Shown: positions 6,665 to 60,225, counted from the first letter of the stretch. The stretch: DNA of 64,000 bases from Chiloscyllium plagiosum (GCF_004010195.1 NC_057754.1:783318-847317); one strand, 5' to 3'. Translations and numbers: made by a program. The notes: generated by a model not told the origin, from the letters alone.

Positions 6665-6900
6665 GATTCTAGATTAGTGTGGTGCTGGAAAATTACAGCA
6701 GGCCAGGCAGCATCCAAGGAGCAGGAAAATCGACGTTTCGGGCAAAAGGAATGAAGGCAGGAAGCCTCTGGGATGGAGAGATAAATGGGAGGGGGATAGG
6801 GCTGGGGAGAAGGTAGCAAAGAGTACAATAAGTGGATGGGGGTGGGGATGAAGGTGATAGATCAGAGAGGAGGATGGAGCGGATAGGTGGGAAGGAAGCA
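6665..6900 (-). mobile_element. Penelope-derived pLTR fragment with partly deleted hammerhead
   Basis: gtggtgctggaaaa...ggcagcatccaaggagcaggaaaatcgacgtttcgggcaaaag, the same repeat as the ends of the 8579-9609 element. Confidence 0.75.
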
Positions 6901-7712
6901 GGAACCCTGGGCAGTGTTCTTACCCACCTGGTCCAATACTGTACCCAACTGAAGGGGAACTGAAGCTAACTGTGAGTCAGCCAGACAGCACAGAGAGTGA
7001 GCCAAACCCGGTATATTCAGATCATTGTAACCAACCACTGACAAGTGAGTGGGGTAGGCACAGTCCCCCTGAAGAAAGAACCCGTGTTTCTGTGGAGTCC
7101 TGAGACATTCCAATGCTGTTCCCAGCAACTTGAGGGGTTTTGCACTGAAGCCACTGTTGTCCTCGTGGAAATGCAACTGCTTGCTTGTGCACAGCAAGAT
7201 CGCACGGCCAGCTATATACGACTACCCAGATCATCTATTTTCAGCCCCAGGACACAGGGAGAGCTCTGTCCTGCACTACTTCCAGTTGTGCGGCTTTTTT
7301 AACCCACCGCCAACCTGCTACCTCACCCCGAGAGAAGCATTTATTCTGCCTGGAAGAGGATCCACTATAGCAGCTGCGTCGGTTCCTCTTTGCCACCATT
7401 ATTTTTGGAATCTAGCAAATTTAGATTGAATTGTCAACCCTGAAATGCTTCTCACAGGGTCAGTAAGCACCTGGGAGCCAGTTGTCCAAGCCTTTTGCAG
7501 CCTGCTCCTGAGTTGACTCTCAATGGACGATTGCCATGGCCTGGAGTCTGCTGCACAAGAGGCAGTGAGCAAGGTACAACCTCCCTAAGTCGAATAGCTA
7601 ACTGAGAGAATGCCCTCTATGTGTGGCTAGTCTGAAACCGCCAATTGAGAAGGAGAGAGTGAGGGGAGAGAGGATGAGAAGTTTTCTGCTGGTTCAGGGA
7701 CAATTTTTTTAA

Positions 7713-8038
7713 ATTAGATTACCTACAGTATGGAAACAGGCCCTTCGGTCCAACAAGTCCACACTGACCTTTCGAAGAGTAACCCACCCAGACCCATTCC
7801 CCTACCCTATATTTACCCCTAACTAATGCACCTAATACTATGGGTAATTTAGCATGACCAATTCATCTCACCTGCACATCTTTGGATTATGGGAGGAAAC
7901 CGGAGCACCCGGAGGAAACCCACGCAGGCACATGGAAAATGTGCAAACTCCACACAGACAGTTACCCGAGGCTGGAATCGAACCTGGTCCCGGATGCTGT
8001 GAGGCACCAGTGCTAACCACTGAGTCACCATGCCGCCC
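7713..8038 (-). mobile_element. HE1-type V-SINE
   Basis: Reverse complement of the tRNA-like head, V-domain (GGGTTTCCTCCGGGTGCTCCGGTTTCCTCCCA) and AATCT tail. Confidence 0.9.
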
Positions 8039-8578
8039 GTATCCGAGATGTTAGCTGGGAATTGTGGGCAGTATTACTCTGACTTGTTGTTTCTGTGTAT
8101 TTATGTGATCTTGACACACCAGCTGTCTCCCTGCTTCACAGCTTCTGCCCTATCAAATGGAGGTACCTCTACTGACCACTGGGCTGTGTCTGGTCAGAGA
8201 TGTACAGCACTAAAAAAGGCCCTTTGGCCCATTGTGGCTGTGCTGGTCAAGAACAACCACCTAATTAGAACTAGGGGGCAAAGCCTCAAAATAAGGGGGA
8301 GCAGATTTAGGACTGAGTTGAGGATCTTCACCCAAAATGTTGTGAATCTGTGGAATTTCCTGCCCAGTGAAGTAGTTGAGGCTACCTTGTTGAATGTTAA
8401 GGGCAAAGAGAGAGAAATTTTTAAACATTAAAGGCATTAAGGGTTATGGTGAGCAGGCAGGCAAATGAAGCTGAGTCCAGGCCAGATAGCCTACTCCTGC
8501 ACCTATTTCTTATGTTAATTATTTAATCCCAATTCCCAGTACTTGGTCCATAGCATTGTCTGCCTTAGTATTGCAAGT

Positions 8579-9609
8579 CGAAAAGTGTGATGCTGGAAAA
8601 ACGCAGCAGGTCAGGCAGCATCAGAGGAGGAGGAGAATTGACATAAGCCCTTCAGAAAGATATGTGGGTGGGAGAGCTGGAAGATAAATAGGAGGGTGGG
8701 GATGAGGTAGCTGGGAAGGTGATCGGTAGATACAAGTGGAGTGATGGTGATAGGTGAGAGGGGAGGGGGTTAGAGTGAATAGGTGGGAAGGAAGATGGAC
8801 ATGTAGGACAGTTCAAAAGGGTGGTGCTGAGTTGGAGGGTTGGATCTGGGATAAAGTGGGGGAGGGGAGATGAGGAAACTGCTGAAGTCAATATTGATGC
8901 TGTGTGGTTGGAGGATCCCAAGGCAGATGATGAGGCTTTCTTCCTCCGGGCATCGGGTAACTTGGATTTAGTGGCGAAGGAGGCCCAGGACTTGCATGTC
9001 CTTGACGGAGTGAGAGGGGGAGTTGGAGTGGTTGGCCACAGGGTGGTGTGGTTGTTTGGTGCGTGTGTCCCAAACATGTTCTCTGAAACATTCAATGAGT
9101 TGGCATCCTGTTTCCCCAATGTAGAGGAGACCACATCGAGAGCAACGGACACAGTACATGAGGTGTTTGGATGTGCAGGAAAATCTCTGCTGGATGTGGA
9201 AGGATCCTTTCAGGCCTTGGAAGGAGGTGAGGGTGGAGGTGTGGGCGCAGGTTTTACACGGTATTGACATCGACTTCACCAGTTCCATCTCCCCTCCCCC
9301 CAACTCATCCCAGATCCAATCCTCCAACTCGGCACTGCCCTTTTAAACTGTCCTACCTATCCATCTTCCTTCCCACCTATCTGCTCCACCCTCCCCTCCC
9401 CACTTGTATCTATATATCATTTTCCCAGCTACCTCAACCCCAACCCCACCCTCCAATTTATCCCTCAGCCCACATCTCCACCATTCCTGATGAAGGACTT
9501 ATGCCCGAAACGTTGATTCTCCTGCTCCTCGGATGCTGCCTGACCTGTTGTACTTTTCCACACCTTTTGACTCTGTTCTCCTGCATTTGCAGTCCTCACT
9601 TTCTCCTTC
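8579..9609 (-). mobile_element. Penelope-like element fragment (GIY-YIG endonuclease) with inverted pseudo-LTRs
   Basis: Minus-strand peptide FSCTSKHLMYCVRCSRCGLLYIGETGCQLIECFREH...HPVANHSNSPSH; termini 8580-8800 and 9340-9560 are inverted copies; interrupts an older CR1 tail. Confidence 0.88.
9483..9518 (+). ncRNA. Minimal type-I hammerhead ribozyme motif (core intact, one stem II mismatch)
   Basis: ATTC-CTGATGA-A-GGAC-TTAT-GCCC-GAAA-CG-TT-GATT. Confidence 0.7.
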
Positions 9610-10060
9610 TGCACATCTAAATACTTCTTCAATATTACAATATTCAATATTCCAAGGGTTTCTGTCTCTACCATCCTGACAGGCAATAACTTCCAGATTC
9701 CCACAACCCCCTGGATGAAAAGATTTGCCTTGCATCTCCACTAAATCTCCTGTCCCTTATCTTAAATCTGTGCCCCCCCCCCGATCATTGATCCTTCTAT
9801 CAAGGGAAAAATGTCTTCCTATCTACCTTACGTGTGCCTCCTCATACTTTTATCCATCTCAATCCTGTTCCCTGTCAAACTCCTCTGCTTTAAGGAAAAC
9901 AGCCATAGTCTGTCCAATCTCTCTTCCAAACTGAAACTTTCCAGACCAGGGGCAGCATCCTGGTAAATCTCTTCCTCACCCTCTCCAGTTCCTGCTTCCA
10001 GCCACATAGTGTTTTCTCTCTCTCAGTTTATCTCTGTCTTTCTCTCTCTCCAGCTCCCCT

Positions 10061-11009: not shown

Positions 11010-13335
11010 AGAACATAGAACAGTACAGCACAGTACAGACCTTCCAACCCAGGATGCTGTGCTGAGCACTTATCTTAATCTAAGATCAACCTAACCTACA
11101 CACCCCACAATTTACTGCAGTCCATCTGCTTGTCTGGCAGTCACTTGAATGACACTAATGTCTCTGACTCTGCTACCACTGCTGGCACTGCATTCCATGC
11201 ACCCACCACTCTTTGCATAGAGGACCTACCTTTGACATCCCCCATACCTTCCTTCAATCACTTTAAAATTATGACCCCCATGACAGCCATTTCTACCCTG
11301 GGGACAAGTCTCTGGCTATCTATTCTATCTATGCCTCTCATTACCTTGTACACCTCTATCAGGTTACCTCCCTTCATTCTTCTCTCCAATGTGAAAAGCC
11401 CTAGCTCACTCAACCTCTCCTCATAAGACATGCTCTCCAACCCTGGCAGCATCCCGGTAAATATCCTCTGCACCCTCTCTAAAGCATCTACGTCCTTCCT
11501 ATAATGAGGTGACCAGAACTGGTCACAATATTCCAATATTATAGAGCTGCAGCACAACCTTGCGGCTTTTAAAGTCAATCCCCCTGTTAATGAAAGACAA
11601 AACACCATACACCTTCTTGACAACCCTATCAACTTGGGTGGCAACTTTGAGGGATCTATATATGTGGACCCACTGTTCCTCCACACTGCCAAGAATCCTG
11701 TCTTTAATCCTGTATTCAGCATTCAAATTCGACCTTCCAAAATGAATCACTTTGCATTTATCCACATTGAACTCCATCTGCCACTTCTCAGCTTAGCTGT
11801 GCCATCCTGTCAATGTCTTGTTGTAGCCTGCAACAGCCCTTGACACTACCTACAACGCCACTGACCTTTGTGGCATTGACAAACTTCCACTTCTTCATCC
11901 AAGTCACTTATAAAAACTATAAAGAGCAGAGGCCCAAGAACAGATCCCTGCGGGACACCACTGGTCACTGACCTCAGGCAGAATACTTTCCATGCACTAC
12001 CACTTGCTGTCTTCTTTTGGCCAGCCAATTCTGTATCCAGACAGCCAAATTATCCTGTATCCTATACCTCCTAACTTTCTGAATGAGCCTACTATGAGGA
12101 ACCTTATCAAATGAAATCCATATACACTACATCCACTCCTCAACCTTTATTAACTTGTCTCGTCACATCCTCAAATAACTCCATAAGTTGTGTGATTTTT
12201 AACTCAAATAACTCCATAAGTCTTGTGAGGCATGGCCTGCCCCTCACAAAGCTATGCTGACCATCTTTAATCAAGCTACGTTTTTCCAAATAGTCATAAA
12301 TCCTGTCTTGCAGAACCCTTTCCAGTACCTTGCTTACCACAGATGTAAGACTGACTGGTCTGTAATTCCCAGGGATTTCCCTATTCCCATTCTTGAACTG
12401 AGGAACAACATTCGACTCCCTCCAATCATCCGGTATTACTCCTGTGGAGAATAAGGATACAAAGGGCTTTTGCCCAAAACTTCGGTTTTCCTGCTCCTTG
12501 GATGCTGCCTGACCTGCTGTGCTTTCCCAGCACCACTCTAAACTTGACTCTGATCTCAAGTATCTGCAATCCTCAGTTTCGCCTATGCAAAGATCATTGC
12601 CAGAGGCGCAGCAATCTCATTCCTCGCTTCCCGTAGTAACTTTGGATATATCTGGTTTGGCCTTGGGGACTTATCTATCTTGATACGTCCCAGAATTTCC
12701 AGCAAATCCACTTCCTTAATATCAGTCTGTTCAAGCCTATTAACCTGGTCCATGTGTTCTCTCAATTAGCAAGGTTCCTCTCTTTCGTGAATACTTAAGC
12801 AAAAAACTCATTTAGGGTCTCCCACACCTTTTCAGACTCCAGACACAAGTTCCTTCACTATCCCTGATCGGCTCTACCCTCTCTCTGATCATTCTCTTAT
12901 TCCTCACGTTAAGTGTAGAACACCTTTGGGTTTTCCCTAATCCTTCCCGCCAAGGCCTTTACGTGCCCCCTCCTAGCTCTCCTCAGTCCATTTTTGAGTT
13001 CTTTCCTAGCTACCCTGTAATTCACTAAAGCTGTGCCAGATCCTCGCTTCCTCAACCTTAAGTAAGCTTCCTTCTTCCTCTTGACAAGAAGCTCCTCTTC
13101 TCTTGTCATCCAAGACTCCTTCACCTTACCATTCCTTGCCTGTCTCAGTGGGACAAAGGTATCCAACACTCGCAACAAGTGCTCCTTTAACAGTCTCCAC
13201 ATTTCTGTTGTGCATTTCCCATAGAACAAGTTGTTCCCAATTTATACTCCACAGCTCCTGTCTAATAGCAGTATAATTTCCTCTCCCCCAATTAAATACG
13301 TTCCCATACTGTCTGTTCCTATCCCTTTCCAAATC
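11010..13335 (-). mobile_element. CR1 LINE, 5'-truncated ~2.3 kb, nested in a second-family LINE and itself interrupted at ~12465-12583
   Basis: ORF2 peptides [48 protein letters not shown] tail at ~11010. Confidence 0.92.
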
Positions 13336-17063: not shown

Positions 17064-18775
17064 CAGAGCGCCGCAGTGTTGGCAGGTCAGTGCTGAGGGA
17101 GTGCTGCAGTGTTGGCAGGTTGGCGCTGAGGGAGCGTCGCACTGTGTCGGAGGATCGGCGCTGAGGTAGCACCGCACAGTATCGGAGGGTCAGCACTGAG
17201 GGAGCGTCCCACTGTGTCGGAGGGTCAACGCTGAGGGAGCATCCCACTGTGTCGGAGGGTCAGCGCAGAGGGGGCGTTGCACTGTGTCATAGTGTCAGCA
17301 CTGAGGGAGCGTTGCACTGTGTCAGAGGGTCAACGCTGAGGGAGCGTTGCACTGTGTCAGAGGGTCAGCGCTGAGGGAGCGTCGCACTGTGTCAGAGGGT
17401 CAGCACTGAGGGAGCGTCGCACTATGTCGGAAGGTCAGCACTGAGGGAGCGTCGCACTGTGTCCGAGGGCCAGTGCTGAGGGGCGTCGCACTGTGTCAGA
17501 GGGTGAGTGCTGAGGGAGTGCCATGCTGTGTCAGAGGGCCAGCGCTGAGGGAGTGCCACACTGTGTCAGAGGGTCAGTGCTAAAGGTGTGTCACACTGTG
17601 TCAGAGGGCCAGCACTGAGGGAGTATCGCAGTGTGTCAGAGGGTCAGCACTGAGGGAGCATCGCAGTGTGTCGGAGGGTCAGCGCAGAGGGGGCATCGCA
17701 GTGTGTCGGAGGGTCAGCGATGAGGGAGCGTCGCAGTGTGTCGGAGGGTCAGCGCAGAGGGGGCATCGCAGTGTGTCGGAGGGTCAGCGCTGAGGGAGCG
17801 TCGCAGTGTGTCGGAGGGTCAGCACTGAGGGAGCATCGCAGTGTGTCGGAGGGTCAGTACTGAGAGGGCATCACACTATGTTGGAGGGTCAGCGCAGAGG
17901 GGGCGTCGCACTGTATCAGAGGGTCAACGCTGAGGGAGCGTTGCACTGTGTCAGAGAGTCAGTGCTGAGGGAGCGTCGCAGTGTGTCGGAGTGTCAGTGC
18001 TGAGGGGGCATCGCACTGTGTCGGAGGGTCAGCGCAGAGGGAGCGTCGCAGTGTGTCGGAGGGTTGGTGCTGAGGGAGCGCCACGCTGTGTTGGAGGGTC
18101 AGCGCTGAGGAAGCACTGCACTGTGTCAGAGGGTCAGTGCAGAGGGAGTACTGCGCTGTGTTGGAAAGTCAGCGCTGAGGGAGCACCATGTTGGTGGGTC
18201 AGCGCTTACGGAGCACTGCACTATGTCAGAGGGTCAGTGCTAAAGGTGTGTCACACTGTGTCAGAGGATCAACACTGAGGGAGTATCGCAGTGTGTCAGA
18301 GGGTCAGTGCTAAGGGAGCATTGCAGTGTGTGAGGTCAGCACTGAGGGAGCATCGCAGTGTGTCAGAGGGTCAGTGCTGAGGGAGCATCGCAGTGTGTCA
18401 GAGGGTCAGCGCTGAGGGAGCACTGCAGTGTGTCGGAGGGTCAGCGCTGAGGGAGCACTACAGTGTGTCGGAGGGTCAGTGCTAAGGGAGCATCGCAGTG
18501 TGTCAGAGGGCCAGTGCTGACAGAGTGTAGCATTGTGTCAGGGGGTCAGCACTGACAGCGCCACACTGTGTCAGAGGGTCAGTGCTGAGGGAGCATCGCA
18601 CTGTGTTCGAGAGTCAGCACTGACGGAGCGCCACACTGCCAGAGGGGCAGTGCTGAGGGAGAGTCAAACTGTTGAAGGGTCAGCGCTGAAGAGCGCTGCA
18701 CTGTGTCAGAGGGTCAGCACTGACAGAACGCCACACTGTGTCAGCGGGTCAGCACTCAGGGAGCGCCGCACTGAT
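17064..18775 (+). repeat. 35-bp minisatellite (~49 units), variant of the 33-bp repeat
   Basis: Unit GGGTCAGCRCTGAGGGAGCRTCGCASTGTGTCRGA; carries an extra TG relative to the 1-740 array. Confidence 0.95.
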
Positions 18776-19065: not shown

Positions 19066-20261
19066 TATCAGCTGCTTACTGTCTACCCTAACTGGTAACT
19101 CACTGTGGCTGTCCTGCCAGCCTGTGTCACGTCGGGGGTGGGGCGAATGTACAGGGGAGTTCGAGAGCTGAGACAGCAAGGAATTAGTGGGTGGTTAGAA
19201 TTTGGGCATTGTCCAGACTGACAATCTTGACTTTGACTCTGTCCAGTCTTCACTGCAGAGGTGCCCTGAGAGTGACCATGAATGCCACAGGTACAGGGTG
19301 AAGGAGGGAGCTTGGATATCAGGCTTTGTCAGAGATGCACTATCTGAGCAATAGTCTCTCCATAACTGAGTGACGAGCTTTTTGAGAGCTGCCTGGACTT
19401 GTGCATTCTGTGTGTGGGTGTGGGAATGTTACTCTGAAATGTTACTGATTCCAGGGAAAGCATTCACTGTCTCCTTTCTTCATATTAAGCTCTCCATAAC
19501 AACCTTCTTTGCCTTGAGACTGTTCCACAGCAGGAGGACATTCAGCCCCTCAGGTCTGTTACACAGGAACAAGAATTAGGCCATTCGGCCCCTCCCTGAG
19601 CCTTTCCCACAGGAATGGGACAAGACCATTCAGCTCCTTCTCAAGCCTGTTCCCCAGTAGAAGGCTATTCAGCTTCCCAAGCCCCATCATTCACTCAGAT
19701 CATGGTTGATCTGTACCTTAACTCCATCTACCAGCCTTGGTCCCAATGACCATTGATCAATCTTAGTTTTAAGATTTTCAATTGACGTCCAGGTTTAAGA
19801 GTATTTTGTGTGTGTTTGGGAGAAGAGAGAGTGTGATAGTGAGTTCTGGATTTCCATTCCCCTGTGTGTGAAGAAATGCTTCCTGGTGTCATTATAGAAA
19901 GGGTTATCTCTGGTTGAAGGTTTTGCCGCCTTGGGCTGTGTTTTGATTGAAAGCTTAAAATGGAGCATGTGTCTGCCCTCTCAGGGGGCGGGGAGGTGGT
20001 GTGAAAGCTCCAATGCCACTATCAGAAGTAGAGCAGGGGGATCTGGAGCCAATATTAATCCCTCAACCAACATCACGATAAACAGATGATCTGGGTCATT
20101 CTCAGATTGCTGTGTGTGGGAGCTTGCTTTGTAAGTCAGCTGTTGTTTCCCCTACATTACCACAGTAACCTGGCAAAGAATAGTATGTTTTATTGGCTGC
20201 AGAGGGATATCGGGCTGGGTGAGATAGTGTGATGGTTAGTCTCTGATTGTCTCCCTGACAG

Positions 20262-20441
20262 AGGACAATGTGTCTGGAGTGAGTGAGTGGGATCACCAGG
20301 ACCACCGGCTTTCAGTGCTTGAACAGAGAGTCCAGCAGCAAGACGATGAGATTACACTGCTTAAATCCGCACTCGCTGATGCCCTCCGTCGCATCTGCTT
20401 CTACGACCAGCACTTCTCACTGCTGGAAGTCAACCAACCCG
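20262..20441 (+). CDS. EML3: EML3 exon: N-terminal trimerization coiled-coil
   Basis: ctgacag|AG GAC AAT...CCC G|gtatgt; (E)DNVSGVSEWDHQDHRLSVLEQRVQQQDDEITLLKSALADALRRI, the EML coiled-coil; 180 nt, phase 1-1. Confidence 0.93.
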
Positions 20442-39650: not shown

Positions 39651-39761
39651 CTCCTGTTACCTTGTGTCCACATCTGGGATTCAGTGACTTTACAAACACT
39701 GCAACACATTGGCCTAGGCAGCTTTGAGAGAGGGGTTGCTACACTCGCTTTCTCCAAGGCC
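39651..39761 (+). CDS. EML3: EML3 WD40/TAPE exon
   Basis: LLLPCVHIWDSVTLQTLQHIGLGSFERGVATLAFSKA; ttgcag / gtaagt; 111 nt. Confidence 0.97.
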
Positions 39762-42439: not shown

Positions 42440-45430
42440 GATGCCAAGATAAGGAATTTGTGGAATGTCTACAAGAGATTTTTTTTAAAGCAGACTGTGG
42501 TGGAACCCACCAGAGAACAAGCAATTCTGGATTAGACATGTGTAATGAGGCAAACGTGATTAGGGTGCTGAAGGTGAAGGAACCCTTAGAGGGCAGTGAT
42601 CATAATATGATAGGATTCACCCTACAGTTTGAGAGAGAGAAGCTGGAATCAAACCTGGGTTCCAGGTGCTGTGAGGCAGCAGTGCTAACCACTGAGCCAC
42701 TGTGCCATCTGTAGAATCTGTTAGAATTCTTTGAGGAGGTAACAAGCAAGTTAAACAAAGGAGATCCAATGGATGTGGTCTATTTGGATTTCCGAAAGGT
42801 CTTTGACAAAGTGCTGCACAGGAGGCTGCTAAGTAAAATAAGAGGTGGGAACAAGGTATTGGCATGGGATAGAGTATTGGCTGATTGGCAAAAGGCAGAG
42901 AGTGGCATTAAAGGGGTCATTTTCAGGATGGCAGCCAATGATGAGTTGATTCAGCAGGGCTTAGTATTGGAACCACAACTATTCACATTATACATTAACG
43001 ATCTAGATGAAGGAACTGAGGGCATTGTTGCTAAGTTGGAAAATGACACAAAGGTAGATGGAGGGGCAGGTTGTGTTGAGAAAGCAGGGCGGCTATTTGG
43101 ACATGGACTTGGACATGCAAGAAGAGTGGGCAAAGAAGTGGCAGATGTAATACAGTGTGGGAAAGTGTAAGGTTATGCACTTTGGTAGGAAGAATAGAGA
43201 TGTAGACTATATTCTAAATGGGGAAAGGCTTTGGAAATCCAAACCACAAATGGACTTGGGAGTCCTGGTTCAGGACTGTCTAAAGTTAACATACAGGTTC
43301 AGCTGGGGTTTAGGAGGTCAAATGCAACATTAACATTCTTTTCAAGAGGGCTAGAATACAGAGCAAGGATGTACTGCTGATGGCTGTGTAAAGCTGTGGT
43401 CAGACTGTATTTGTAAATATTGAGAGCAGTCTGGATGTAGGTTTGCTTGCTGAGCTGGAATATTCGTTTTTAGACATTTCGTCACTATACTAAGTAACAT
43501 CTTTAGTGAGCCTCTGAATGAAGCACTGGTGGTGTAGTCCTCTTTCTATTTATATGTTTGAGTTTCCTAGGGTTGGTGATGTCACTTCCTATGGTGACAT
43601 TATTCCCTATGGTGATATCATTTTCTGTTCTTTTTCTCAGGGGGTGGTAAGTAGAATCCAAGTCAATGTGTTTGTTGATAGATTTCTGGTTGGAATGCCA
43701 TGCTTCTAGGAATTCTCATGTGTGTCTCTGTTTGGCTTGTCCTAGAATGGATGTGTTGTCCCAGTCGAAGTGGTGTCTTTTGTCATTTGTATGTAAAGAT
43801 ACTAGTGAGAGAGGGTCATGTCGTTTTGTGGCTAGTTGATGTTCATGTATCCTGGTGGCTAGTTTTCTGCCTGTTTTGTTACTGTTCTTGCTAGGTATTT
43901 TGTAAATGACAGTAGTTTTGCTTGTTATTTGTACGAGGTCTTTCAAGTTCATTAGCTGCTGTTTTACTGTGTTGGTGGGTTTGTGGGCTACCATGATGCC
44001 AAGAGGTCTGAGTAGTCTGGCAGTCATTTCTGAGATGTATTTCATGTAGAGGAGAGTGGCTAGGGTTTCTGGGTGTGTTTTGTCTGCTTGTTTGGGTTTG
44101 TTGCTCAGAAATCAGCAGACTGTGTTCAATGGCACCAGTTCTTTTTGAATACATTGTATAGGTGATTTTCCTCTGCTCTTTGTAGTTCCTCAGTGCTGCA
44201 GTGTGTGGTGGCTCGTTGAAATAATGTTCTATTGCAGCTTCGTTTGTGGATGTTGGGATGATTGCTTCTGTAGTTCAATATTTTGTCCGTATGTGTTGTT
44301 TTCCTGTAGACACTGGTTTGAAGTTGCCCATTGGCTGTTTGCTCTACTGTGACATCTAGGAATGGCAGTTTGTTGTTGTTTTCCTCCTCTTTAGTGAATT
44401 TTATACCAGTAAGGGTATTAATGATGGTCTTGAAGGTTTCCTCTAATTCCTCTAACTCCTCTAACTAACATATAAATAGAAAGCGGGCTACACCACCAGT
44501 GCTTCATTCGGAGGCTCATTGAAAATGTTTCCTAGTATTGTGACGAAATGTCTGAAAACGAACCTTCAAGCTCAGCAAGCAAACCTACAGCCTGAACCTC
44601 AACCTGTGCTACAAATCTTCTCAAAACTCATTGAGAGCAGTTTTGGGCCACGTATCTCAGGAAACTGTGCTGGTATTGAAGAGTATGGCAAGAGGAGGCT
44701 TATAGGAGGGATGAAGGACTGGTCATAGAGGTATGGTTAAGGACTCTGGGTCTATACTCAGTGGAGTTTAGCAGGATGAGGGGCATCTGATTGAAACTTA
44801 GAGGCCTGAATAGAGTGGATGTGGAGAAGATGTATTAGTAGGACAGACTATGACCCAAGGGCACAGCCTTACAATGAAGGAATGACCCTTTACAACTGAG
44901 CTCAGGAGGAATTTCTTCAGCTGGAGTGGTCAATCTGTGGAACTCATTACCACAGAAGGTTGTGGTGGCCTGGTTATCGAGTGTATTTGAGAGAGAGATA
45001 AATAGGTTCTTGATTAGTAATTGTATCAAGGGTTAAGGAGAGAAGGCAGGAGAATGGGGTTGAGAAACCTATCAGCCATGATTAAAGGCAGAGGAGACTT
45101 GATAGGCCCTATAGCCTAATTCTTCACCTTTACCTAATGGTCTTATAGGAGAGAGTGGGACCAGAGGGCAAAATCTCAGAGTAAGGGATCACCAACCAAG
45201 GACAGAGATGAGGAGGATTCCCCCACTCCGAGTGTTTGGATCTGTGGAATTCTTTACCATGGAGCCTGAGTCCTTGAGGATATTCAAGGAAGAGATAGAC
45301 AGATGTTTAATCAGTAAGAGAATCAAAGGTTATGGTGATAAGACAGGAAAATAGGACTTGAGGATTTTAAGATCAGTCACTGTCTCATTGAATGGCAGAG
45401 TATATTAGTCTACTGTTACTTCTACATCTT
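42440..45430 (+). mobile_element. Old CR1 fragments, interrupted by a Penelope element and an HE1 fragment
   Basis: MDVVYLDFRKVFDKVLHRRLL, LFTLYINDLDEG; the ...YCEQFW-like segment is split at 43430/44641. Confidence 0.85.
43431..44629 (-). mobile_element. Penelope-like element (second family) with inverted pLTRs and 12-bp TSD
   Basis: GIY-YIG peptide VIYKIPSKN...TGRKLATRIHEHQLA...HHFDWDNTSIL; 43431-43560 and 44467-44592 are inverted copies; ATTGAGAGCAGT at 43419-43430 and 44630-44641. Confidence 0.92.
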
Positions 45431-46412: not shown

Positions 46413-46825
46413 CCCTCCCCCCTCCCCCACAAAGGTTGTGGATTCAAGGCTCACTCTGGAGACATGAATACAAAATCTGGACTGACAGATCCCTGCACTG
46501 TCGGATAGTCAGTGCTGAGGGAGTGCCACACTGTCAGAGAGTCAGTACTGAAGGAGCGCTGCACTGTTGGAGGTTTAGCGCTGAGACAGCACCATACTGT
46601 CAGAGGGTCAGTGCTGAGATAGAACTGCAGTGTCAGAAAGTCAGCAATAAAGGAGCTCCACGCTGTCGGATGGTCTCTATTGCATGATCAGAGGTACTGT
46701 GTTTCAGATGAAACATTAATTTCAGACCCCATTGTCCTCTTGGGTAGGTGTAAAATGTTCCAGAGCCACCACTGGGAGAAGAGCACGAGGTATCTCTCCA
46801 GTGTTCTGGGCCAATATTTTTATGC

Positions 46826-47164
46826 CAGTGGTTAGCACTGCTGCCTCACAGCGCCAGGGACCCGGTTTCGAATCCAGCCTTGGGCGACTGTCTGTGTGGA
46901 GTTCGCACATTCTCCCTGTGTCTGCATGGGTTTCCTCCGGGTACTACGTTTCCTGCCACAAGCCAAAGATGTGCAGGCTAGGTGAATTGGCCATGCTAAC
47001 TGTCCACAGTGTTCAGGAATGTGTAGGTTAGGTGTATTAGTCAGGAGCAATGTAAAGTAATAGGGTAGGGGAATGGGTCTGGGTGGGTTACTCTTCGGAG
47101 GGTTGATGTGGACATGTTGGGTCAAATGGCCTGTTTCCACACTGTAGGGATTCTATTCTATTCT
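46826..47164 (+). mobile_element. HE1-type V-SINE nested in the DeuSINE
   Basis: cagtggttagcactgctgcctcacagcgcc...gggtttcctccgggt...ccacactgtagggattctattctattct. Confidence 0.9.
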
Positions 47165-47192
47165 TAGCAAACATCACCAAATCAACAGACCA

Positions 47193-47421
47193 AATGAAAC
47201 AAAAACTGAAGTTGCTGGAAAAGCTCAGCAGGTCTGGCAGCATCTGTGAAAAGAAATCAGAGTTAACGTTTCGGGTCCAGTGACCCTTCCTCAGAACTGT
47301 ACTGAGGAGGGGTCACTGGACCTGAAGAGTTAGCTGATTTCTCTTCATAGACACTGACAGACCTGCTGAGTTTTTCCAGCAGTTTCTGATTTACAGCATC
47401 TGCAGTTCTTTTTGTTTTCAG
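47193..47421. mobile_element. Palindromic non-autonomous Penelope-type element with back-to-back hammerheads; TSD CAGACCA
   Basis: Arms 47210-47297 and 47301-47385 are reverse complements; CAGACCA at 47186-47192 and 47422-47428. Confidence 0.85.
47261..47298 (-). ncRNA. Minimal type-I hammerhead ribozyme motif, intact
   Basis: Minus strand: AGTT-CTGAGGA-A-GGGTC-ACTG-GACCC-GAAA-CG-TT-AACT (4-bp stem I, 5-bp stem II, palindromic ACGT stem III). Confidence 0.82.
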
Positions 47422-48465: not shown

Positions 48466-48570
48466 GTGAGAGGGAAAACCTTGCACACTGACTCTTGAGT
48501 GAAAGTTCCTTGACCTACAATGAGAGGAGGGGGGACCTTTCATCACACCAGAGTCTGGCTATTGTCCCTG

Positions 48571-48709
48571 GAGAAAGTGAGGGCTGCAGATGCTGGAGAT
48601 CAGAGCTGAAAATGTGTTGCTGGAAAAGCGCAGCAGGTCAGGCAGCATCCAAGGAACAGGAGAATCGACGTTTCGGGCATATGCCTTTCTTCAGGAATCA
48701 ATTCTGAAT
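48571..48709 (-). mobile_element. Short Penelope-derived insertion with hammerhead and 17-bp TSD
   Basis: TCTGGCTATTGTCCCTG at 48554-48570 and 48710-48726; minus strand 48663-48698 ATTC-CTGAAGA-A-AGGC-ATAT-GCCC-GAAA-CG-TC-GATT. Confidence 0.9.
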
Positions 48710-49759: not shown

Positions 49760-49975
49760 CAAAATATTGTCAATACTGGAAATCCCAAACGTAAACAGAA
49801 TGTTGGAAAAACTCAGCAGGTCTGGCAGCATCTATGGAGAGAGAAAAACAGAGTTAATGTTTCAAGTCCTGTATGACTGTTCCTTAGGATAGTTCTGAAG
49901 AGTCATGTCAACTCAAAATGTGAACGTATTCTCTCTCTACTGCTGAGTTTCTCCAGCATTCTCTGTGTTTGTTTC
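49760..49975. mobile_element. Older palindromic Penelope-type element, degenerate hammerheads
   Basis: ggaaaaactcagcaggtctggcagcatct...ctgctgagtttctccagca inverted arms, similar to 47193-47421. Confidence 0.75.
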
Positions 49976-50764: not shown

Positions 50765-52860
50765 CTGCACCAATGGACATCAGAAGATCATGCATTCTGA
50801 TGACGGGCCTCAATGTGCAGAAGACAATTTTAAAGTTTATGAATGACATGAAATTTAAAGCATTGGAAATAGTGAGGAGGACAGTGACAAGTTGGTGGAG
50901 TGGGTGGATGTGTGACATGTGGAATTCAATATCCAGAGGTGTGGGGTGATGCATTTTATATACACTTCAACTCAGTATAGGAACAGGCCCTTTGGCCCAC
51001 CAAGTCTGCACCAGTTCCTAGTCCTTATTTGTACCTGCTACTTATTGCCTATGCACAGTTTCTATCCCTCTGTTTGTCTACTGTTCATGTGTCTATCAAA
51101 GTACACTTTAAACATTGATAATATGCCTGCTTCCACCACCACCACTGGCAGTGCGTTCCAGACACCCACCCCGCATGTCTCCCCTAAACCTTCTCCTTCT
51201 CACCTTGAACCTGTGCCCTCTTGTAGTTGACCTTTCTATCCTGGGGAAAAAGCCTTTGACTATCTAACCTATCTATGCTCCTCATAATTTTGTAGACCTC
51301 TATCAGGCTCAGACTCCATCTTTCCAGTGAAAACAATCCAAGTTTATCCAAACTCTCCTCATAATTAAAACCATCCAGACCAGGCAACATTCTGATAAAC
51401 CTTCTCTGCGTTCTCTCCAAGGTATCCTGTTGGTAGGGTGACAACCAGAACTGCACAAAATATTCCAAATGTGGCTTAACAGAAGTTTTGTACAGCAATA
51501 ACATAATTTGCTGACTTTTATAGTTGATGCCCTTGCCAATGAAGGCAAGTGTGCTGTATGCTTTCATAACCACCTTATCCAGCAGTTGCCACTTTCAGGG
51601 ATCTGTGGACATGTTTGCCCAATGTCAATGCTCCAAAGTGTTCTGCCATATATTGTGTAATTTACACCTGAATTTGATCTTCCAAAATGCATCACCTCAC
51701 ATTTGTCCAAATTAAACTCCATCTACTGTTTTTCTGCCCAAGTCTACAATCTATCTATATCCCACAGTATCCTTTGACAATCCTCCTGATTATCTGCAAC
51801 TCCACCAATTTTGATATTAATCAGACCACCTACTTTTTTGCACCAGATCATTTATATATATTACAAACAACAAAGGTCCCAGCACTGACCCTACTGTCTT
51901 GTCTACCTTTAATGAATTTAAAGACACCCACCACTTCCTCCTTCATTATGTTGTGGAGGTACCAGTGTTGGACTGGGGTGGACAAAGTTAAAAATCACAC
52001 AACACCAGCTTCCTGATGAAGGAGCCAAAAGCTAGTATTTCCAGGTAGAGCTGTTGGACTATAACCTGGTGTTGTGTGATTTTAACTTCATTATGTTGAT
52101 CTGACTTTGGTAGAAAGAACTTTGAAAGACAATACATTAGGAGATACAATTCTAAAAAGGGGTGCTGGAGCAGAGGGACTTGGCTGTATATGTGCACAGA
52201 TCATCAAAGGTAGCAGAACTGATAGGGAGAGCAGTTGATAATAGAGTATCCTCAGCATTACTAATAGGAGCATAGAGTTCAAGATCCGGTAATGCTGAAC
52301 TTGTATAAGACACTTGTTAGACCTCAATTGGAGTATTGTGTACAGCTCTGGGTGCTACATTATGAGATGGATGTGTACACTTTGGAGAAAGGGTGGAAGA
52401 GATTTACAAGAATGGTTCAACGAATGAGAAACTTCAGCTATATATGTAGACAGGAGAGGTTGGTTCTCCTTGGAGAGAAGAAGGCTAAGAGGAGATCTGA
52501 TAGGGGTTTTCAAAATTATGAAGGAACTGAATAGAGTAGATGGGGGAAAAAGTGTTCCTGTTAGTAAAAGGAACAGGGGACAGACACTTAAAATGATTTG
52601 CAAAAGAAGCAAATGTGCTGAGGGGAAAAAGAAACACTTTTTTGCACAAGTGGTTAAGGTCCGGAATACACTGCCCGGAAGTGTGGTGAAGGTAGGTATA
52701 ATTGAGGCATTCAAGAGGGCATTGGACACTTAAATAAAAACAATGTAAAACGAATAAGGGAAAGTTAGGAGGATGGGACTAAGTCATGATGTTTGTTTGT
52801 TGGAGAGCCAGTGCAGACACAGTGGGCCAAATGGCAGCCTTCTATGCCTTGACATTTCTG
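50765..52860. mobile_element. Plus-strand CR1 3' fragment split by a minus-strand CR1 (~50960-51895) and a short element
   Basis: MEFNIQRCGVMHF ... [17 protein letters not shown] on +; KPHLEYFVQFWLSPY on -. Confidence 0.85.
51954..52085. mobile_element. Short Penelope-type element (AGCT hammerhead family), 13-bp TSD
   Basis: CTTCATTATGTTG at 51941-51953 and 52086-52098; CTGATGAAGGAGC...AAAGCTAG with stem II deleted. Confidence 0.8.
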
Positions 52861-56444: not shown

Positions 56445-56672
56445 AGAGAAATAAAAAGAGAAATTGCTGGAAAAACTCAGCAGGTCTGGCAGTATCTGTA
56501 GAAAGGAATTAGTGTTTATGTTTCAGGTCCAGTGACTTTTCTTCAGTATGTGGGGTTCTGATGAAGGATCGCTGGACCCAAAACATTAACTCTGATTTCT
56601 GTCCACAGATGCTGTCAAACTTGTTGAGTTTTCTAATTTCCAGCATCCACAGTGCTTTCGGTTCTTTTTGTT
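56445..56672. mobile_element. Palindromic Penelope-type element ~20 nt after an exon donor
   Basis: Same family as 47193; + arm GTT-CTGATGA-A-GGATC-GCTG-GACCC-AAAA-CA-TT-AAC (G12 mutated). Confidence 0.8.
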
Positions 56673-58466
56673 CAGTTGTGGTGAGTGTTTCTTTGCAATT
56701 TCAGCATCACAAAACACTGGGTGGATCCCCCCAACCAGATCCCAAACTGCTTCATCCTTCCTCCAGATCACAGCTGATTTATGACTCAACATCACTTGAC
56801 TTTGCTTCATAATCTTCTAATGGCCCTTGTCTATCAAAAATCAGTGATGAAAATACCCAAAGCCTTTTGGAGTCCAGAAGTTCTAGACTTTCAAAACTAT
56901 TTATGAGAGAGAGGTTTGTTCCGTGATTTCTCTAGAACGCTAATTGATGAGAACAAGCACCCAGTATGACGCTTTCATCCTGTCAATGTGAGAGCAGGAC
57001 AGATCATTTCAAGAATGAGATAGCCAAGCACGGAAGGGTTTAGTGGACTAATGGCACAACATTGTTGAGTATTAGGATCCGCACCATCCATCTCTCTCTT
57101 GCTCTCTGTCTGTCTGCATACAGAGAGTCTGTGTGGGAAGAAGCCAGTTGGCAGTGATATTCATGCAGGCTACTGCCCAAAAGCAGCGCCTGCCACACGC
57201 AGAATTGAGAAAGAGCCAGAAAGGGAAATGTTTGGATGACCACAGAAGATGCCTTTCCTGTTTTGCTTATGTGGTGGAAACAGATTTTAATCCAGGTGCT
57301 GTGAGGAGATGCCTGAGGTGTCCTTCCACATATTAACCAAAGCAGCTTTGTAAAGGGAAGTGGGTACCCAATTCACATTCACCCACTGTCCCACCCCGCC
57401 CTCCACTACAGCCACCATTGGGCACCAGTACTGTGTAACAAACAGCAGGGACAGATAGCACTGCAATAGGGTTGGACTGTGACGCCTTCCAATGTTGAAT
57501 AAGGGTCTGGGTCTGTACATATCAAATGGTACTGGATATTAAAGGTACCATGGGTGGCCAGTTCCTGTGCAACTGTGCCAGGGTCAGAACGGAGCCTTTG
57601 AGAAGCAGAATAAAAAGCTGCATTGAAACATTACAAACCACTTCTCTTCTGTGGCTGGATGCACTATAATGATCACTGTGATCATTTCTGAGCCGTGTGG
57701 GGAAAGGCAGACAGCAGCCTGGGCTATTTAAATACAGGCATAGAGTAGAAAAGCCAGAATTTATGTTAAGCCTTTCTAAGTCACTGTATTAGACTTCAGT
57801 GAGAGTATTGGATCTAAAATTTTGTTCATTATTCATTGAGTGTTTATGACTAGGCCCACCCCTTAAGAATAACCACATTGCTTTGGGTATGGAGTCACAG
57901 GTAGACCAGACTGGATAAGGACAGCAGATTTCATTCCTTCAAAGACATTAGTGACACCAGGGTTTTACGTCAATTCACCCTGGTTACATGCTAACCATTA
58001 GATCAGTTTTTAACATTACACAATTTTGTTGAATTCAAATTTTACCAGCTGGGATTTTAATCTCTGCCCCCCAGAATACAACCAAGGTCTCTGGATTACT
58101 AGTCCAGTGACATTAATACCACGCTGCCACTTCTCAATTCTGGACCCCACCCTTTTGGTAGGATTTTGAAACTTCAGAGGGTACGGAGGAAATCTGTTAA
58201 AATAGGACCACGGTTGAAAGATTTTTATGAATGTGGAAAGACCAGAGAAGTGGAATTGTTCTCCTTAAAGCACAGAGAGTTAAATGGGAGATCTGACCAA
58301 TGCTACACTGGAATACATTTCTTAATTTCCATCAACAAGTTGATTTGGTTTTAATGTAACTGCATTTGGTGCCTGCAGAGGGTAGTACTGAGCTTCTCCC
58401 TTATTCCTAACACTGCCCCACGCAGGCACTCTGTGTTATTACTGTGTTTTGGCCTGGTTACCTAAT

Positions 58467-58563
58467 TCTGGATCAGTGGTGCTGGAAGAGCACAGCAGTT
58501 CAGGCAGCATCCAAGGAGCTTCGAAATCGACGTTTCGGGCAAAAGCCCTTCGTCAGGAATAAA
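58467..58563 (-). mobile_element. ~100-bp Penelope-derived insertion, TSD ACCTAAT
   Basis: ACCTAAT at 58460-58466 and 58564-58570; CpGs retained. Confidence 0.88.
58525..58560 (-). ncRNA. Minimal type-I hammerhead ribozyme motif, intact core and stem II
   Basis: Minus strand: ATTC-CTGACGA-A-GGGC-TTTT-GCCC-GAAA-CG-TC-GATT; GUC cleavage triplet ending at 58529. Confidence 0.8.
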
Positions 58564-58742
58564 ACCTAATGTCTTGGCTTCCTGGACAGGATATTCGGTT
58601 GCAATAAGCCAGTTTGGATGTCACTATTTTATGTGACATAGGGAAGTTGTTGTTAGTGAAATGTGACTCATCCAGAACTACCTGTATTGATATGGTACCT
58701 GATAATGCAGCACAGTGTTCCAATGTGCTGGATATAAAAGGA

Positions 58743-58941
58743 CAATGTGGAGGAGCCAGTGTTGGACTGGTGTGGACAAAGTTAAAAATCACATAACACC
58801 AGATTATAGCCCAACAGGTTTATTTGGAAGCACTAGCTTTTGGAACGCTATCCTTCGTCTGATGAAGGAGCAGCACTCCAAAAGCTAGTGCTTCTAAATA
58901 AACCTTTTGGATTATAACCCTGGTGTTGTGTGATTTTTCAC
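58743..58941. mobile_element. Palindromic Penelope-type element (AGCT hammerhead family)
   Basis: Inverted arms aaaaatcac...cactagcttt / aaagctagtg...gtgattttt; CTGATGA-A-GGAGC-AGC-ACTCC-AAAA-GC-TA at 58859-58887; imperfect TSD GATATAAA(A)GGA. Confidence 0.82.
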
Positions 58942-59433
58942 GATATAAAGGAAGGCATAGGTGTAGTGATGTCACTAACTGATCCTCTAGGGACATGACC
59001 GGTGATAAAATCTGAATTCAGCAAACAAAGTCTAGTCAAAAACCCATCTGTGTCATTAATGCCCTTTAGGGAAGTAAACTGCCATTCTTACATGGTCTAG
59101 GCGATAATGTGACTCCAGACCCACCCTTGACTCTTAAGGGCACTCTGAAATGGCCTGGCAAGACAGTTAGTTGCATCTAAACGTTACAGATATTCAATAA
59201 AAGCAATGGAATTAAATGGACCATGATTCATAAACCAAGGTGCTGGAAATAACACCATAGTCTTGTCAACCCTGTATTTATGCACAACATAAACAGCACT
59301 GCACCCATTTCAACATAACAAAATAGGTGACAGCCATTCTCTGGTTTATTTCTCAGGACATGCCTCGACCAATGAAAGTCATGTGCCTTGTTTAAAATTT
59401 AAACAAAGCTTGGCAGTTAACTGGTAATCATCA

Positions 59434-59607
59434 TTCGAGATTGTGGTGCTGGAAAAGCACAGCAGGTTAGGCAGGATCTAAGGAGGAGGAGAGTCGACAT
59501 TACAGGCAAAAGCTCTTCTTCAGGATGGCTCCTCAGATGCTGCTGTTGTGCTGTTGTGCTTTTCCAGCACCACACTCTCGACTCTAATCTGCAGTCCTCA
59601 CTTTCAC
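59434..59607. mobile_element. Short inverted Penelope-derived insertion
   Basis: gtggtgctggaaaagcac / gtgctttccagcaccac arms; CTGG(T/C)AATCATCA duplicated at 59421-59433 and 59608-59620. Confidence 0.8.
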
Positions 59608-60225
59608 CTGGCAATCATCAGTAACTAGTGCATTTTACAAGCAACATCCCTACCAATCAGAGTCCACTTTATCAACTAATCAGCACTCTCCTCTTATACA
59701 ATAAATATTATTTTTCCCATTTCATTGGTTTACTTGGGATTGGTCCTGATGAGCACAAGATGAAAAACTTTGAGAAAAGTATATTTTTCAGCAATACTAA
59801 CATTCTGTTCTACCAAACAGCTATTTGAGTGACCTGCTCAGTGATGCTCTGTTTGGGTTCTGTCAGAGCCACACACCTCATTTGTAGCCTTGGCTGAAAC
59901 ATTATCAATAGAGCTAAACTTTAGACATGAGGTGGTAGTGACTGTCCTTGTGTTTGACCAAGTCTTTCATTAAGGAACACAATAAAAATTGGAGTCAGTG
60001 GGAATCAGGGGAAAATTTTCTGCTGGTTGTAGTCATACTTGGCATAAAGAAAGATGGTTGTGGTTTTTTGGACATCAGTCATCTCAGCTCCAGGACATCT
60101 GCACAGATGTTCCTCAGGGTACTGTCCTAGACCCAACCATCTTCAGTTGCTTCATTAGTAATCTTGCTGATGATTGCTGGTAATTGGCAAATAACGTGCA
60201 CTATGCAAGTGCCAGACATGACTGT

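Follow-up and report, generated by a model that had tools for sequence, protein, structure and literature searches.

Penelope elements are the closest retroelement relatives of telomerase, and the repeats described here bear on how Penelope-like elements (PLEs) are copied: from a sense or an antisense template, from linear or circular RNA, and with what role for the ribozyme. In retroviruses, by comparison, the first cDNA is a short, tRNA-primed strong-stop DNA that ends at the cap. Cervera and de la Pena (2014) called the roughly 4,000 minimal hammerheads of coelacanth and 9,000 of Xenopus remarkable (PMC4209133), and non-LTR retrozymes reach up to 120,000 copies in axolotl (PMC7229834; bioRxiv 10.64898/2026.07.22.740005). 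For an anole PLE protein, initiation in vitro is internal and occurs at two sites, both strands are extended and cleavage is not needed (PMC11167929). A rotifer pseudo-LTR (pLTR) contains a TATA box and an initiator, Inr (PMC3846280), and in L1 insertions an extra G derives from the mRNA cap (PMC11702581).

We examined a window of 64,000 nucleotides from Chiloscyllium plagiosum that contains an EML-family gene on the + strand (PF23409, E 3.8e-09). An earlier note, made from the sequence alone, had read the hammerhead-bearing repeats of this gene as non-autonomous, ribozyme-processed units of 100-230 bp.

Results

Judged by their sequence, the motifs are minimal type-I hammerheads of the Penelope kind, as the note had recognised. 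The core bases, stem II with its G-C closing pair, the palindromic stem III and stem I are all present (most A copies have a single U-U in stem I), and the stem I, II and III sequences differ among families A, B, C and D and rarer variants while pairing is kept, so that the covariation between families claimed earlier holds. When eight natural copies were folded freely, none reached the full dimeric active fold and one (A2) formed pairs via its palindrome. The hammerhead would probably act in the master RNA only, as a protein-assisted dimer; scattered copies would decay neutrally, most of them inert, and those in the introns of the host gene are probably inert. An Rfam scan of the window returned no matches at gathering thresholds, a scan that is uninformative for minimal motifs.

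Twelve insertions with about 20 arms in all lie in the window, and eight of the 12 are inverted pairs (Table 1). The 14 motifs listed earlier all lie on repeat copies of the four types described, only two of them are intact and 10 have lost or changed core bases; they are 14 motifs, not 14 elements. A strict descriptor is passed by two motifs (58556- and 47294-), against 0-1 in each of 20 shuffles. Median arm lengths (A 116, B 98, C 109 and D 231 nt) fit the proposed unit size, which two arms of 0.7 and 1.0 kb, both encoding Penelope protein, exceed. Many units had been described as flanked by target site duplications (TSDs); in the window a TSD of at least 10 nt was detected at 5 of the 12 insertions.

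Table 1. Repeat arms and inverted pairs in the window, with the state of their hammerheads
Feature	Position	Strand	Description
Family A single arm	6661..6898	-	3' UTR and decayed hammerhead, core deleted (CTGANGA missing at 6730); short 3' end; TSD sought, none found
Family A long arm, tail-less	8583..9258	-	GIY-YIG coding end 9210-8839 (tblastn 59% identity, E 1.9e-39); blastn 69% to L244; hammerhead region partly deleted
Inverted partner of 8583..9258, with tail	9257..9607	+	Hammerhead at 9487, all core bases kept, one stem II mismatch
Family A single arm with tail	12462..12589	+	Begins at +6, CTGANGA missing (12465); within LINE fragment
Family D long arm, ~1 kb, no tail	43430..44448	-	Broken Penelope coding end, GIY-YIG at 43961-43623 (tblastn 69%, E 1.2e-47); TATA-like box; hammerhead 43506 (G5>A, CUGA altered)
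Family D inverted partner with tail	44463..44630	+	Decayed hammerhead at 44519 (CUGA altered); pair 43430-44630 flanked by 14-nt TSD
Family B arm	47169..47308	-	Fully intact minimal hammerhead by strict descriptor and pairing; C3 at 47294, predicted cut 3' of U at 47265
Family B inverted partner with tail	47299..47418	+	Hammerhead 47302, GAAA broken
Family A2 single arm with tail	48570..48699	-	Motif 48694-, all core bases kept, one stem II mismatch (G10.1>A); 17-nt TSD; starts at A(-4) = 48698, preceding G (48699) is C in long copies
Old family B variant, inverted pair	49772..49975	.	Decayed hammerheads 49887- and 49895+ (G12>A at 49895); right end approximate
Family C inverted pair	51948..52089	.	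Tail arm (-) 51948-52011; short arm (+) 52006-52089, stem II deleted, G12>A at 52013; 13-nt TSD
Family B inverted pair	56447..56690	.	Hammerheads 56546- and 56558+ (G12>A at 56558), both decayed; right end approximate
Family A1 single arm, no tail	58464..58563	-	Fully intact minimal hammerhead; start ~7 nt ahead of core; C3 at 58556, predicted cut 3' of C at 58529
Family C inverted pair	58745..58941	.	Tail arm (-) 58745-58865; short arm (+) 58858-58941, G12>A (58859); ~10-nt TSD
Family A inverted pair	59430..59609	.	Short arm (-) to 59525, GAAA broken (59523); tail arm (+) 59528-59609 starts beyond ribozyme; 13-nt TSD

On the evidence of the adjoining coding sequence, the repeats are pseudo-LTR ends of Penelope-like elements of a known kind, from at least four families. 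In longer copies of A, B, C and D a GIY-YIG or C-terminal coding end lies directly upstream of the motif in the sense direction, which agrees with the proposal that Penelope RT/GIY-YIG mobilises them. The short units are continuous with this coding sequence in the longer copies of all four families, also inside the window, and subfamily-specific loops are common to short and long copies; both points argue against units of their own, whether SINE-like or retrozyme-like. Two family A loci have the order RT, GIY-YIG, hammerhead (L244, with a 13-nt TSD, and L243), and L194 carries two hammerheads 3,463 nt apart with an assembly gap between them. Mini-copies with an internal deletion have two hammerheads about 270-450 nt apart, with breakpoints that vary by locus. 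Pfam matches to RVT_1 and GIY-YIG are weak, under the curated cut-offs; Atlas neighbours bear PF26215/PF01541, and a PDB sequence search with the RT piece gave no meaningful match. A Cys-rich linker ahead of the endonuclease is present in A (Neptune-like) and absent in D (Poseidon-like), labels that rest on motifs and not on an RT tree. Among 10 + 15 extended loci we found no intact ORF, the long copies being broken or entering assembly gaps. Apparent long open frames were mostly gap runs.

These elements are extremely abundant, as had been expected from the window. We counted at least 55,000 exact motif matches genome-wide, with zero for the reversed-pattern controls in each genome-wide count. 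The 1,144,786 bases sampled contain 70 strict motifs, whereas each of five shuffles gave 1-3. Extrapolated to the genome, the sample points to some 200,000 strict motifs and to about 0.9 million element pieces. The density of element pieces is about one per 4 kb, and at least 4.3% of the sampled DNA consists of Penelope elements. The number of minimal hammerheads is far above published figures for other vertebrates, which were obtained with different descriptors. Of 313 arms (A 181, B 62, C 47, D 23), only 11 have a same-strand neighbour within 1 kb, and the tandem repeats of the window include no head-to-tail hammerhead arrays.

Where do the copies begin? The 5' end falls between -15 and +9 in 89 of 181 A arms, 29 of 62 B arms, 23 of 47 C arms and 4 of 23 D arms. 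The pile-up in A2 and B is at the first base of the ribozyme, A(-4), which is also the first base of stem I and is initiator-like, and TATA-like boxes lie 27-32 nt ahead of the start in B, C and A2 (the box of A1 is weak). Since short copies start downstream of the TATA-like box, they are without it, which, like the loops held in common with long copies, argues against a SINE-like lineage with an internal promoter. D has no 5' pile-up: about 90 of 100 matches listed continue to -23. Copies that cross the ORF start also stop at -4 to -12 of their own 5' repeat (6 of 9 read out).

The base before these starts is often a G that long copies do not encode. We counted it by hand on the first 100 matches listed in C1 (C1-C2 for B), a non-random set in which the first-letter filter favours long copies. 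Among the 100 matches listed for A2 the preceding base is G in 24, A in 5, T in 4 and C in 67, so that G accounts for 24 of 33 non-C rows (p 2e-8), and the control at the next inward base (G 10, T 37, C 53, again among matches listed) has no G excess. Among the matches listed, G occupies 15 of 32 non-C rows in B (p 0.008) and 10 of 19 at two positions in C (p 0.011), where the marked ends at -8 and -6 are CA steps 32-34 nt behind the TATA box. A1 has no G excess among its matches listed (4 of 21 non-T rows; 4 of 17, p 0.77, once four long variants are set aside), and roughly 70 of 100 run on beyond -11. Of 20 G copies that we fetched, none runs on into element sequence; in 7 the G is supplied by neither the target nor the partner arm, and in the other 13 it might equally derive from the target (6), from the partner arm (3) or from filler (4). 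Several loop-II subfamilies contain G-starts. About 43 of the 100 A2 matches listed also extend beyond the proposed start, so a second route is needed.

In contigs with two other organism labels, loose ends taken against a reference that has C at -5 are most frequent at -4, the last letter of their consensus being G; of 6 listed joints at -4, 5 end in G. An earlier loose-end peak at -4, obtained with A1 as reference, was discarded as evidence because other subfamilies diverge from A1 exactly at -5. Reads of a raw poly(A) single-cell run (X21) came from both strands and their ends did not pile up; this is uninformative for expression and cleavage, and run X22 gave none. In openly searchable text we found no cap-derived G, strong-stop products or shark minimal-hammerhead counts; supplements may list shark PLE families.

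At the other end the copies are just as regular. In A, B, C and D the 3' ends are bimodal, at two positions 30-40 nt apart, so that the last segment is an optional tail (in family A the ends lie about 60 or 100 nt past the cleavage site). Short inverted pairs account for 124 of the 313 arms, and of these 62 pairs 58 have exactly one tail, none has two and four have none. In the 58, the tail arm reaches less far 5' than its partner in 31, further in 14 and equally far in 13. Many pair junctions are near-perfect palindromes. TSDs of at least 10 nt, mostly 14-17 nt, flank 42 of 60 inverted pairs against 8 of 225 controls; 24 of 180 single arms have a detectable TSD. A short partner arm lies beside 15 of 179 single copies against 7 of 179 controls, a weak signal. 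We also considered the cleavage site as a copy boundary and rejected it: 7 of 181 family A arms have a 5' end at +25 to +30, with no peak. Together with the scarcity of same-strand neighbours, this speaks against ribozyme-processed units.

Discussion

Our preferred reading, which we hold to be probable, is that these repeats are the pseudo-LTR ends of at least four PLE families with a hammerhead, and that the short ones are run-off (strong-stop-like) cDNAs of the 5' end of a capped RNA, not a mobile family of their own. Pol II would transcribe a long copy from the TATA-like box and initiator; in A2 and B the first base of the RNA would be A(-4), in C either A(-8) or A(-6). The RT/GIY-YIG protein would make staggered nicks in AT-rich DNA, and, by analogy with the anole protein, both target 3'-OH ends would prime reverse transcription internally, at about +125 and +90 and thus some 130 and 95 nt from the capped 5' end. 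Each cDNA would run to the end of the RNA and copy the cap as an extra C; two cDNA ends, or a cDNA end and the target, would then be joined head-to-head via microhomology. Read-through RNAs, or a jump to the 3' repeat copy of the RNA, would account for longer arms.

The alternative that deserves most weight, though we think it unlikely, is ordinary 5' truncation, in which reverse transcription from the 3' repeat of a long RNA stops after the folded or protein-bound ribozyme and adds an untemplated C. The A and B pile-up does fall at the 5' edge of stem I, roughly half of all copies extend past it, and heavy 5' truncation is a known PLE trait (PMC8557442). A stop of this kind does not sit well with the G-marked ends of C, which lie outside its 3-bp stem I, 32-34 nt behind the TATA box, with D, whose ribozyme is of the same kind yet has no nearby pile-up, or with the loss of the G excess one base inward. 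Discrete SINE-like masters of 100-230 nt, starting with an encoded G and copied by PLE proteins acting in trans, would also fit the seemingly fixed 5' and 3' ends, the TSDs and the very large number of copies; PLEs are known to have non-autonomous derivatives (PMC8557442; bioRxiv 10.64898/2026.07.22.740005), and the mini-copies with two hammerheads could be mobilised in this way. We regard such masters as improbable, because G-starts span subfamilies and differ in position between families, diagnostic loops are common to short and long copies, the short units are without a TATA-like box, and mini-copy breakpoints vary from locus to locus. The short units moreover end at the initiation sites, and the anole protein requires RNA beyond them (PMC11167929).

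Two further routes seem very improbable to us. A single cDNA that primes itself or folds back, perhaps on an antisense template (PMC3846280), would yield inverted pairs with near-perfect palindromic junctions; here, either arm of a pair may extend further 5', the G is at the sense 5' end, and fold-back alone leaves the one +90 and one +125 end per pair unexplained. Marginally the least credible is hammerhead cleavage and ligation to a circular RNA that is then reverse transcribed, a model proposed for PLEs (PMC4209133) that the conserved cores and stems would fit, circles having been demonstrated for canonical retrozymes (PMC7229834). A circle has no capped end, tandem units are predicted where direct neighbours are rare, and ends do not cluster at the cut site. 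The cap-like G before the ribozyme and the single tail per pair instead favour a linear, capped sense RNA primed twice.

More tentatively, and with rather less confidence than in run-off copying itself, PLEs may transpose in an LTR-like manner without true LTRs, by way of two strong-stop cDNAs and a jump from cap to 3' repeat. The pseudo-LTR would be ordered as promoter, cap site with ribozyme, and priming sites; a protein dimer would prime both nicks near the capped 5' end, one per fixed site, and full-length or partial-tandem copies would arise only after a cDNA jumps from the cap to the 3' repeat of the RNA. The hammerhead, the first 30 nt of the RNA, would be the shared repeat that pairs or trims both ends. 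If this is true, the genome holds hundreds of thousands of frozen strong-stop intermediates, short pieces that annotation tools would label SINEs or MITEs. The fixed-base G and the tail rule name exact bases at which Penelope copying can be tested.

The metazoan PLE hammerheads of PMC4209133 share with ours CUGANGA, one bulged base before stem II, G10.1-C11.1, a palindromic 4-nt stem III and a short stem I, and they too form several families per genome, mostly dispersed as single or opposite-strand motifs. The scale differs (here at least 55,000 exact and about 200,000 extrapolated, with other descriptors), as does the mechanism suggested there, cleavage and circular templates, whereas ends here point to linear capped RNA. 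Like the Neptune and Penelope/Poseidon EN+ clades (PMC8557442, PMC3846280), these elements have RT with a C-terminal GIY-YIG, partial tandems, inverted pLTRs, a tail on one end and TATA + Inr in the pLTR; those studies favour self-priming and interpret the short copies as solo pLTRs or as products of 5' truncation. Non-LTR retrozymes (PMC7229834; bioRxiv 10.64898/2026.07.22.740005) are likewise short, non-coding and PLE-related with a type-I hammerhead, but they form head-to-tail tandem arrays giving circular RNAs, while the repeats here are dispersed, head-to-head and continuous with PLE coding sequence.

PAc, the Anolis Poseidon, has two RT start sites past the hammerhead with an optional 30-40 nt tail, AT-rich targets, extension of both strands and no reads ending at the cut site, all as here (PMC11167929). 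The 5'-end pile-up, cap-derived G and one-tail-per-pair rule are not described for PAc in the available part of that report, and the Poseidon-type family here (D) is the one without a pile-up. L1 (PMC11702581) shares the cap-derived extra G at the 5' junction and, in twin-primed insertions, TSDs of 12-18 nt and the joining of two primed cDNAs through microhomology; it differs in that here there is no poly(A) priming and both cDNAs copy one 5' stretch from two fixed internal sites. Set beside retroviral strong-stop DNA, the primer here would be target DNA and not a tRNA.

Hammerhead motifs in the window and in the genome

All 14 motif coordinates reported in the earlier note fall on genuine repeat copies; as hammerheads, two of them are intact and two more have a complete core with one mismatch in stem II, and the other ten are defective in the core. 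With a strict descriptor (CTGANGA, an optional bulge, stem II of at least 4 bp, GAAA-NN-T-H) we find two motifs in the window, compared with 0-1 across 20 shuffles. In 120 evenly spaced 10-kb stretches of the 3.56-Gb source assembly (1,144,786 non-N bases) the same descriptor finds 70, compared with 1-3 per shuffle in five shuffles, and in 59 of these 70 the GAAA is followed by CGT, by CpG-decay forms of CGT, or by GCT. For the four hammerhead-bearing repeat families, exact genome-wide matches number 49,325 (A), 104 (B), 4,873 (C) and 812 (D), with none for the reversed control of each. BLAST with natural references identifies 313 arms (single oriented copies) in the sample (A 181, B 62, C 47, D 23), which occupy 4.3% of it. 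Scaled up to the roughly 3.4 Gb of non-gap sequence, these densities imply about 200,000 strict motifs (range roughly 160,000-260,000); the corresponding figure for arms is about 0.9 million, or one every 3.7 kb.

The repeats and Penelope coding sequence

The motif of each of the four families is preceded, in longer copies, by a GIY-YIG C-terminus in sense orientation at a distance of 80-500 nt. Two such ends occur in the window (see table), and because one is part of a 1-kb arm, the motifs at 43470 and 44520 belong to the two arms of a single 1.2-kb insertion, which has a 14-nt target duplication (TSD). A natural 2.6-kb copy elsewhere (L244, TSD 13 nt) runs from reverse transcriptase (RT) through GIY-YIG to the hammerhead. 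At locus L194 two repeats lie 3,463 nt apart with an assembly gap between them, and the reading frame continues through the 5' ribozyme and its tail, the optional 30-40 nt 3' extension of an arm. Pfam matches (RVT_1, E 6e-6; GIY-YIG, E 3e-4 to 6e-4) all fall below the curated cut-offs; among Atlas neighbours, PF26215 and PF01541 are found in 18-55% of members. None of 25 extended loci holds an intact ORF. We conclude that the repeats are almost certainly the ends of Penelope-like elements (PLEs). The separate family of short, non-autonomous, retrozyme- or SINE-like elements proposed earlier is not supported. Every loop II subfamily holds both long and short copies.

A Cys-rich linker is present in family A and missing in family D, which, without it, presumably resembles Poseidon. 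The linker is given as a mark of Neptune in the available text of PMC8557442. Nine loci (L104, L106, L107, L109, L117, L119, L121, L126 and L129) hold internally deleted copies of subfamily A1 in which the ORF start is fused to the 3' repeat at locus-specific breakpoints; these are candidate trans-mobilised mini-elements.

Hammerhead structure

As had been claimed from the sequence alone, the stems vary between families with pairing retained, and in natural copies this holds for stems I-III. Stem II is GGGC/GCCC in A, GGGUC/GACCC in B, GGAGC/GCUCC in C and GUUACC/GGUGAC in D, and stem III is ACGU or AGCU. Stem I, of 3-4 bp, is family-specific in sequence with its pairing kept: in family A, AUUC faces GAUU with one U-U, or GAAU in one subfamily, and further pairs are AGUU/AACU, CAC/GUG and UCA/UGA. 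This structure agrees with the minimal PLE hammerhead in the accessible part of PMC4209133. An Rfam scan of the window returned no match, and free folding gave the full dimeric active fold in none of 8 copies; excerpts of PMC4209133 and PMC11167929 describe PLE hammerhead activity as weak or protein-assisted. Genomic copies have decayed inside each family, chiefly at CpG, and conservation therefore mirrors the master elements and not the dispersed copies. Additional Poseidon-type variants, outside these four families and distinct from them in the sequence of both stem II and stem I, occur in L146 (about 2787, +), L195 (about 7062, +) and L261 (521, +).

One tail per inverted pair

We number positions from the C of CUGANGA as 0, with negative values upstream. 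The 3' ends of arms are bimodal, at about +90 and +125 in family A and at comparable pairs of positions in B, C and D, and correspond to the PLE tail, which the available text of PMC11167929 attributes to two internal RT start sites. Head-to-head arrangement with a partner of the same family involves 124 of the 313 arms, and in these 62 inverted pairs exactly one tail is present in 58, none in 4 and two in 0 (p 1e-13 against an expectation of one half). Four longer pairs (L295, L266, L188, L161) have the same one-tail pattern. Tails at one of the two ends have been described before in qualitative terms (PMC8557442 and PMC3846280, both in part). The tail arm reaches less far 5' than its partner in 31 pairs, further in 14 and equally far in 13. 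TSDs of at least 10 nt flank 42/60 pairs and 24/180 single arms, compared with 8/225 shifted controls, and are mostly 14-17 nt long and 67% A+T; a wider search assigns candidate TSDs to 31 of 77 young single A arms, some of which lie far off and are probably chance matches. Tandem arrangement is rare, with a same-strand neighbour within 1 kb for only 11/313 arms.

A small number of inverted junctions in subfamily A2 are found in identical form at many loci and are set by microhomologies of 2-3 nt internal to the ribozyme. PLE pieces of one family also often lie within or adjoining those of another (L009, L236, L319 and others), which suggests nested targeting of AT-rich repeat sequence.

5' ends and an extra G

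Many 5' ends lie between -15 and +9 (A 89/181, B 29/62, C 23/47, D 4/23), and only 7/181 family A arms end at +25 to +30, around the predicted cut after +27. We counted bases at 5' joints by hand in 100 listed matches per family, which are the first on contig C1 (C1-C2 for family B) and not a random draw. In A2, 19,039 matches extend to -4, and at -5 the 100 listed have C 67, G 24, A 5 and T 4. Long copies have C, and in the listed non-C copies the bases further upstream are unrelated. The share of G among non-C copies exceeds the expected 0.26 (p 2e-8; 6e-8 without one duplicated flank). One base inward, the listed rows of 6,245 matches give G 10, T 37 and C 53 (Fisher p 4e-8 for the difference in G, with T 38 used), a control itself shaped by junction microhomology. 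In several rows of this inward listing, an additional T accompanies the G ahead of the start. At -5, about 43 of the 100 listed A2 rows extend to -11.

Listed family B matches have G 15, T 10, A 7 and C 68, and G makes up 14/27 of the non-C after removal of five mutated long copies. In listed family C rows, G precedes A(-8) in 6/11 and A(-6) in 4/8, both without three mutated long rows that bring the total to 10/22. A1 has no G excess among the matches listed (4/21 non-T rows), about 70/100 of which run on, and D has no pile-up, about 90/100 listed rows extending to -23.

Of the 24 listed A2 copies with G, we fetched 20 with their flanks, and none continues into element sequence. The G matches neither target nor partner arm in seven; it matches the target in six, within a microhomology of 1-4 nt, matches the partner arm in three and ends filler in four. 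Window copy 48694 has the same G start. Contigs carrying the labels of two other organisms (sequencing runs X16 and X5) have their biggest listed 5' class in loose ends before -4 (94 and 55 contigs), with a consensus that ends in G among the rows listed; X16 joints landing on -4 are G-terminal in 5/6 listed. In the raw RNA run X21 the corresponding consensus among the rows listed ends in T, and run X2 has no loose end at -4 among its listed rows.

A proposed run-off model

A(-4), the first base of stem I, lies in TCATTC in A2 and TCAGTT in B, contexts that we take to be initiator-like. TATA-like boxes lie upstream at 27 nt (B, locus L018), 32 nt (C) and about 32 nt (A2, weaker), and at -48 in family D; two long copies checked, one B and one D, have none. 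TATA plus Inr has been noted in a pseudo-LTR (pLTR) of rotifer Penelope (PMC3846280), and PMC2377424 describes an internal promoter for D. virilis. PMC11702581 interprets an extra G at the 5' junctions of full-length L1 copies as the copied mRNA cap. Among 15 loci picked for the ORF start, nine are readable, of which six stop at -4 to -12 of the 5' repeat and three run on.

We lean towards a mechanism in which short copies are cDNAs ending at the capped 5' end of element RNA. On this account, the simplest one, transcription would start immediately ahead of the ribozyme, the two target nicks would prime internally at +125 and +90, and the cDNAs would run off at the cap and be joined via microhomology. 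The ribozyme would most likely serve to pair or cut the two repeats of the master RNA with the help of protein.

Other features of the window

The host gene is of the EML family, on the + strand. Penelope arm 12462 sits within one of the LINE fragments, which are presumably CR1/L2-like, and the minisatellite units also occur singly elsewhere. Outside the window, the translation of a stretch in L200 (- strand, 5619-6395 counted thereon) looks like part of a reverse transcriptase of retroviral or LTR type.

Features of the window
Feature	Position	Strand	Remarks
Strict hammerhead motifs	58556, 47294	-	
GIY-YIG end	9210-8839	-	upstream of family A motif
GIY-YIG end	43961-43623	-	part of 1-kb arm 43430-44448
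Exon-like EML-family stretches	20240-20440, 39621-39800	+	coiled-coil segment, first beta-propeller match (PF23409)
Large LINE fragments, partly inverted	11166-13294, 28538-33702, on to 34092		AP endonuclease and RT domains
GC-rich minisatellite arrays	1-739, 17123-18773, 46496-46644		related 33- and 35-bp units; 22, 48, 4 copies
Dispersed ~320 bp repeat	7709-8038, 26631-26917, 30911-31230, 46077-46404, 46823-47164	both	at least 5 copies; probably a SINE
Stop-free frame, 393 aa	22559-23740	+	Gln/Ser/Pro-rich, outside repeats; possibly a large host-gene exon

Relation to known systems

Earlier publications already cover minimal hammerheads in the pLTRs of PLEs, as well as dispersed and inverted copies, tails, and initiation at internal sites. 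Tandem retrozymes are linked to pLTRs in the available text of 10.64898/2026.07.22.740005, which samples one chondrichthyan, and canonical retrozymes reach as many as 120,000 copies in the axolotl (PMC7229834, in part); the accessible parts of PMC6155905 and PMC4350176 add nothing on sharks. No mention of a cap-like G, of strong-stop products, or of the one-tail rule in the form of a count turned up in our search, with most subscription papers, Repbase, Dfam and supplements outside it. The mechanistic signature of a 5' G together with one tail per pair may be new and can be tested directly.
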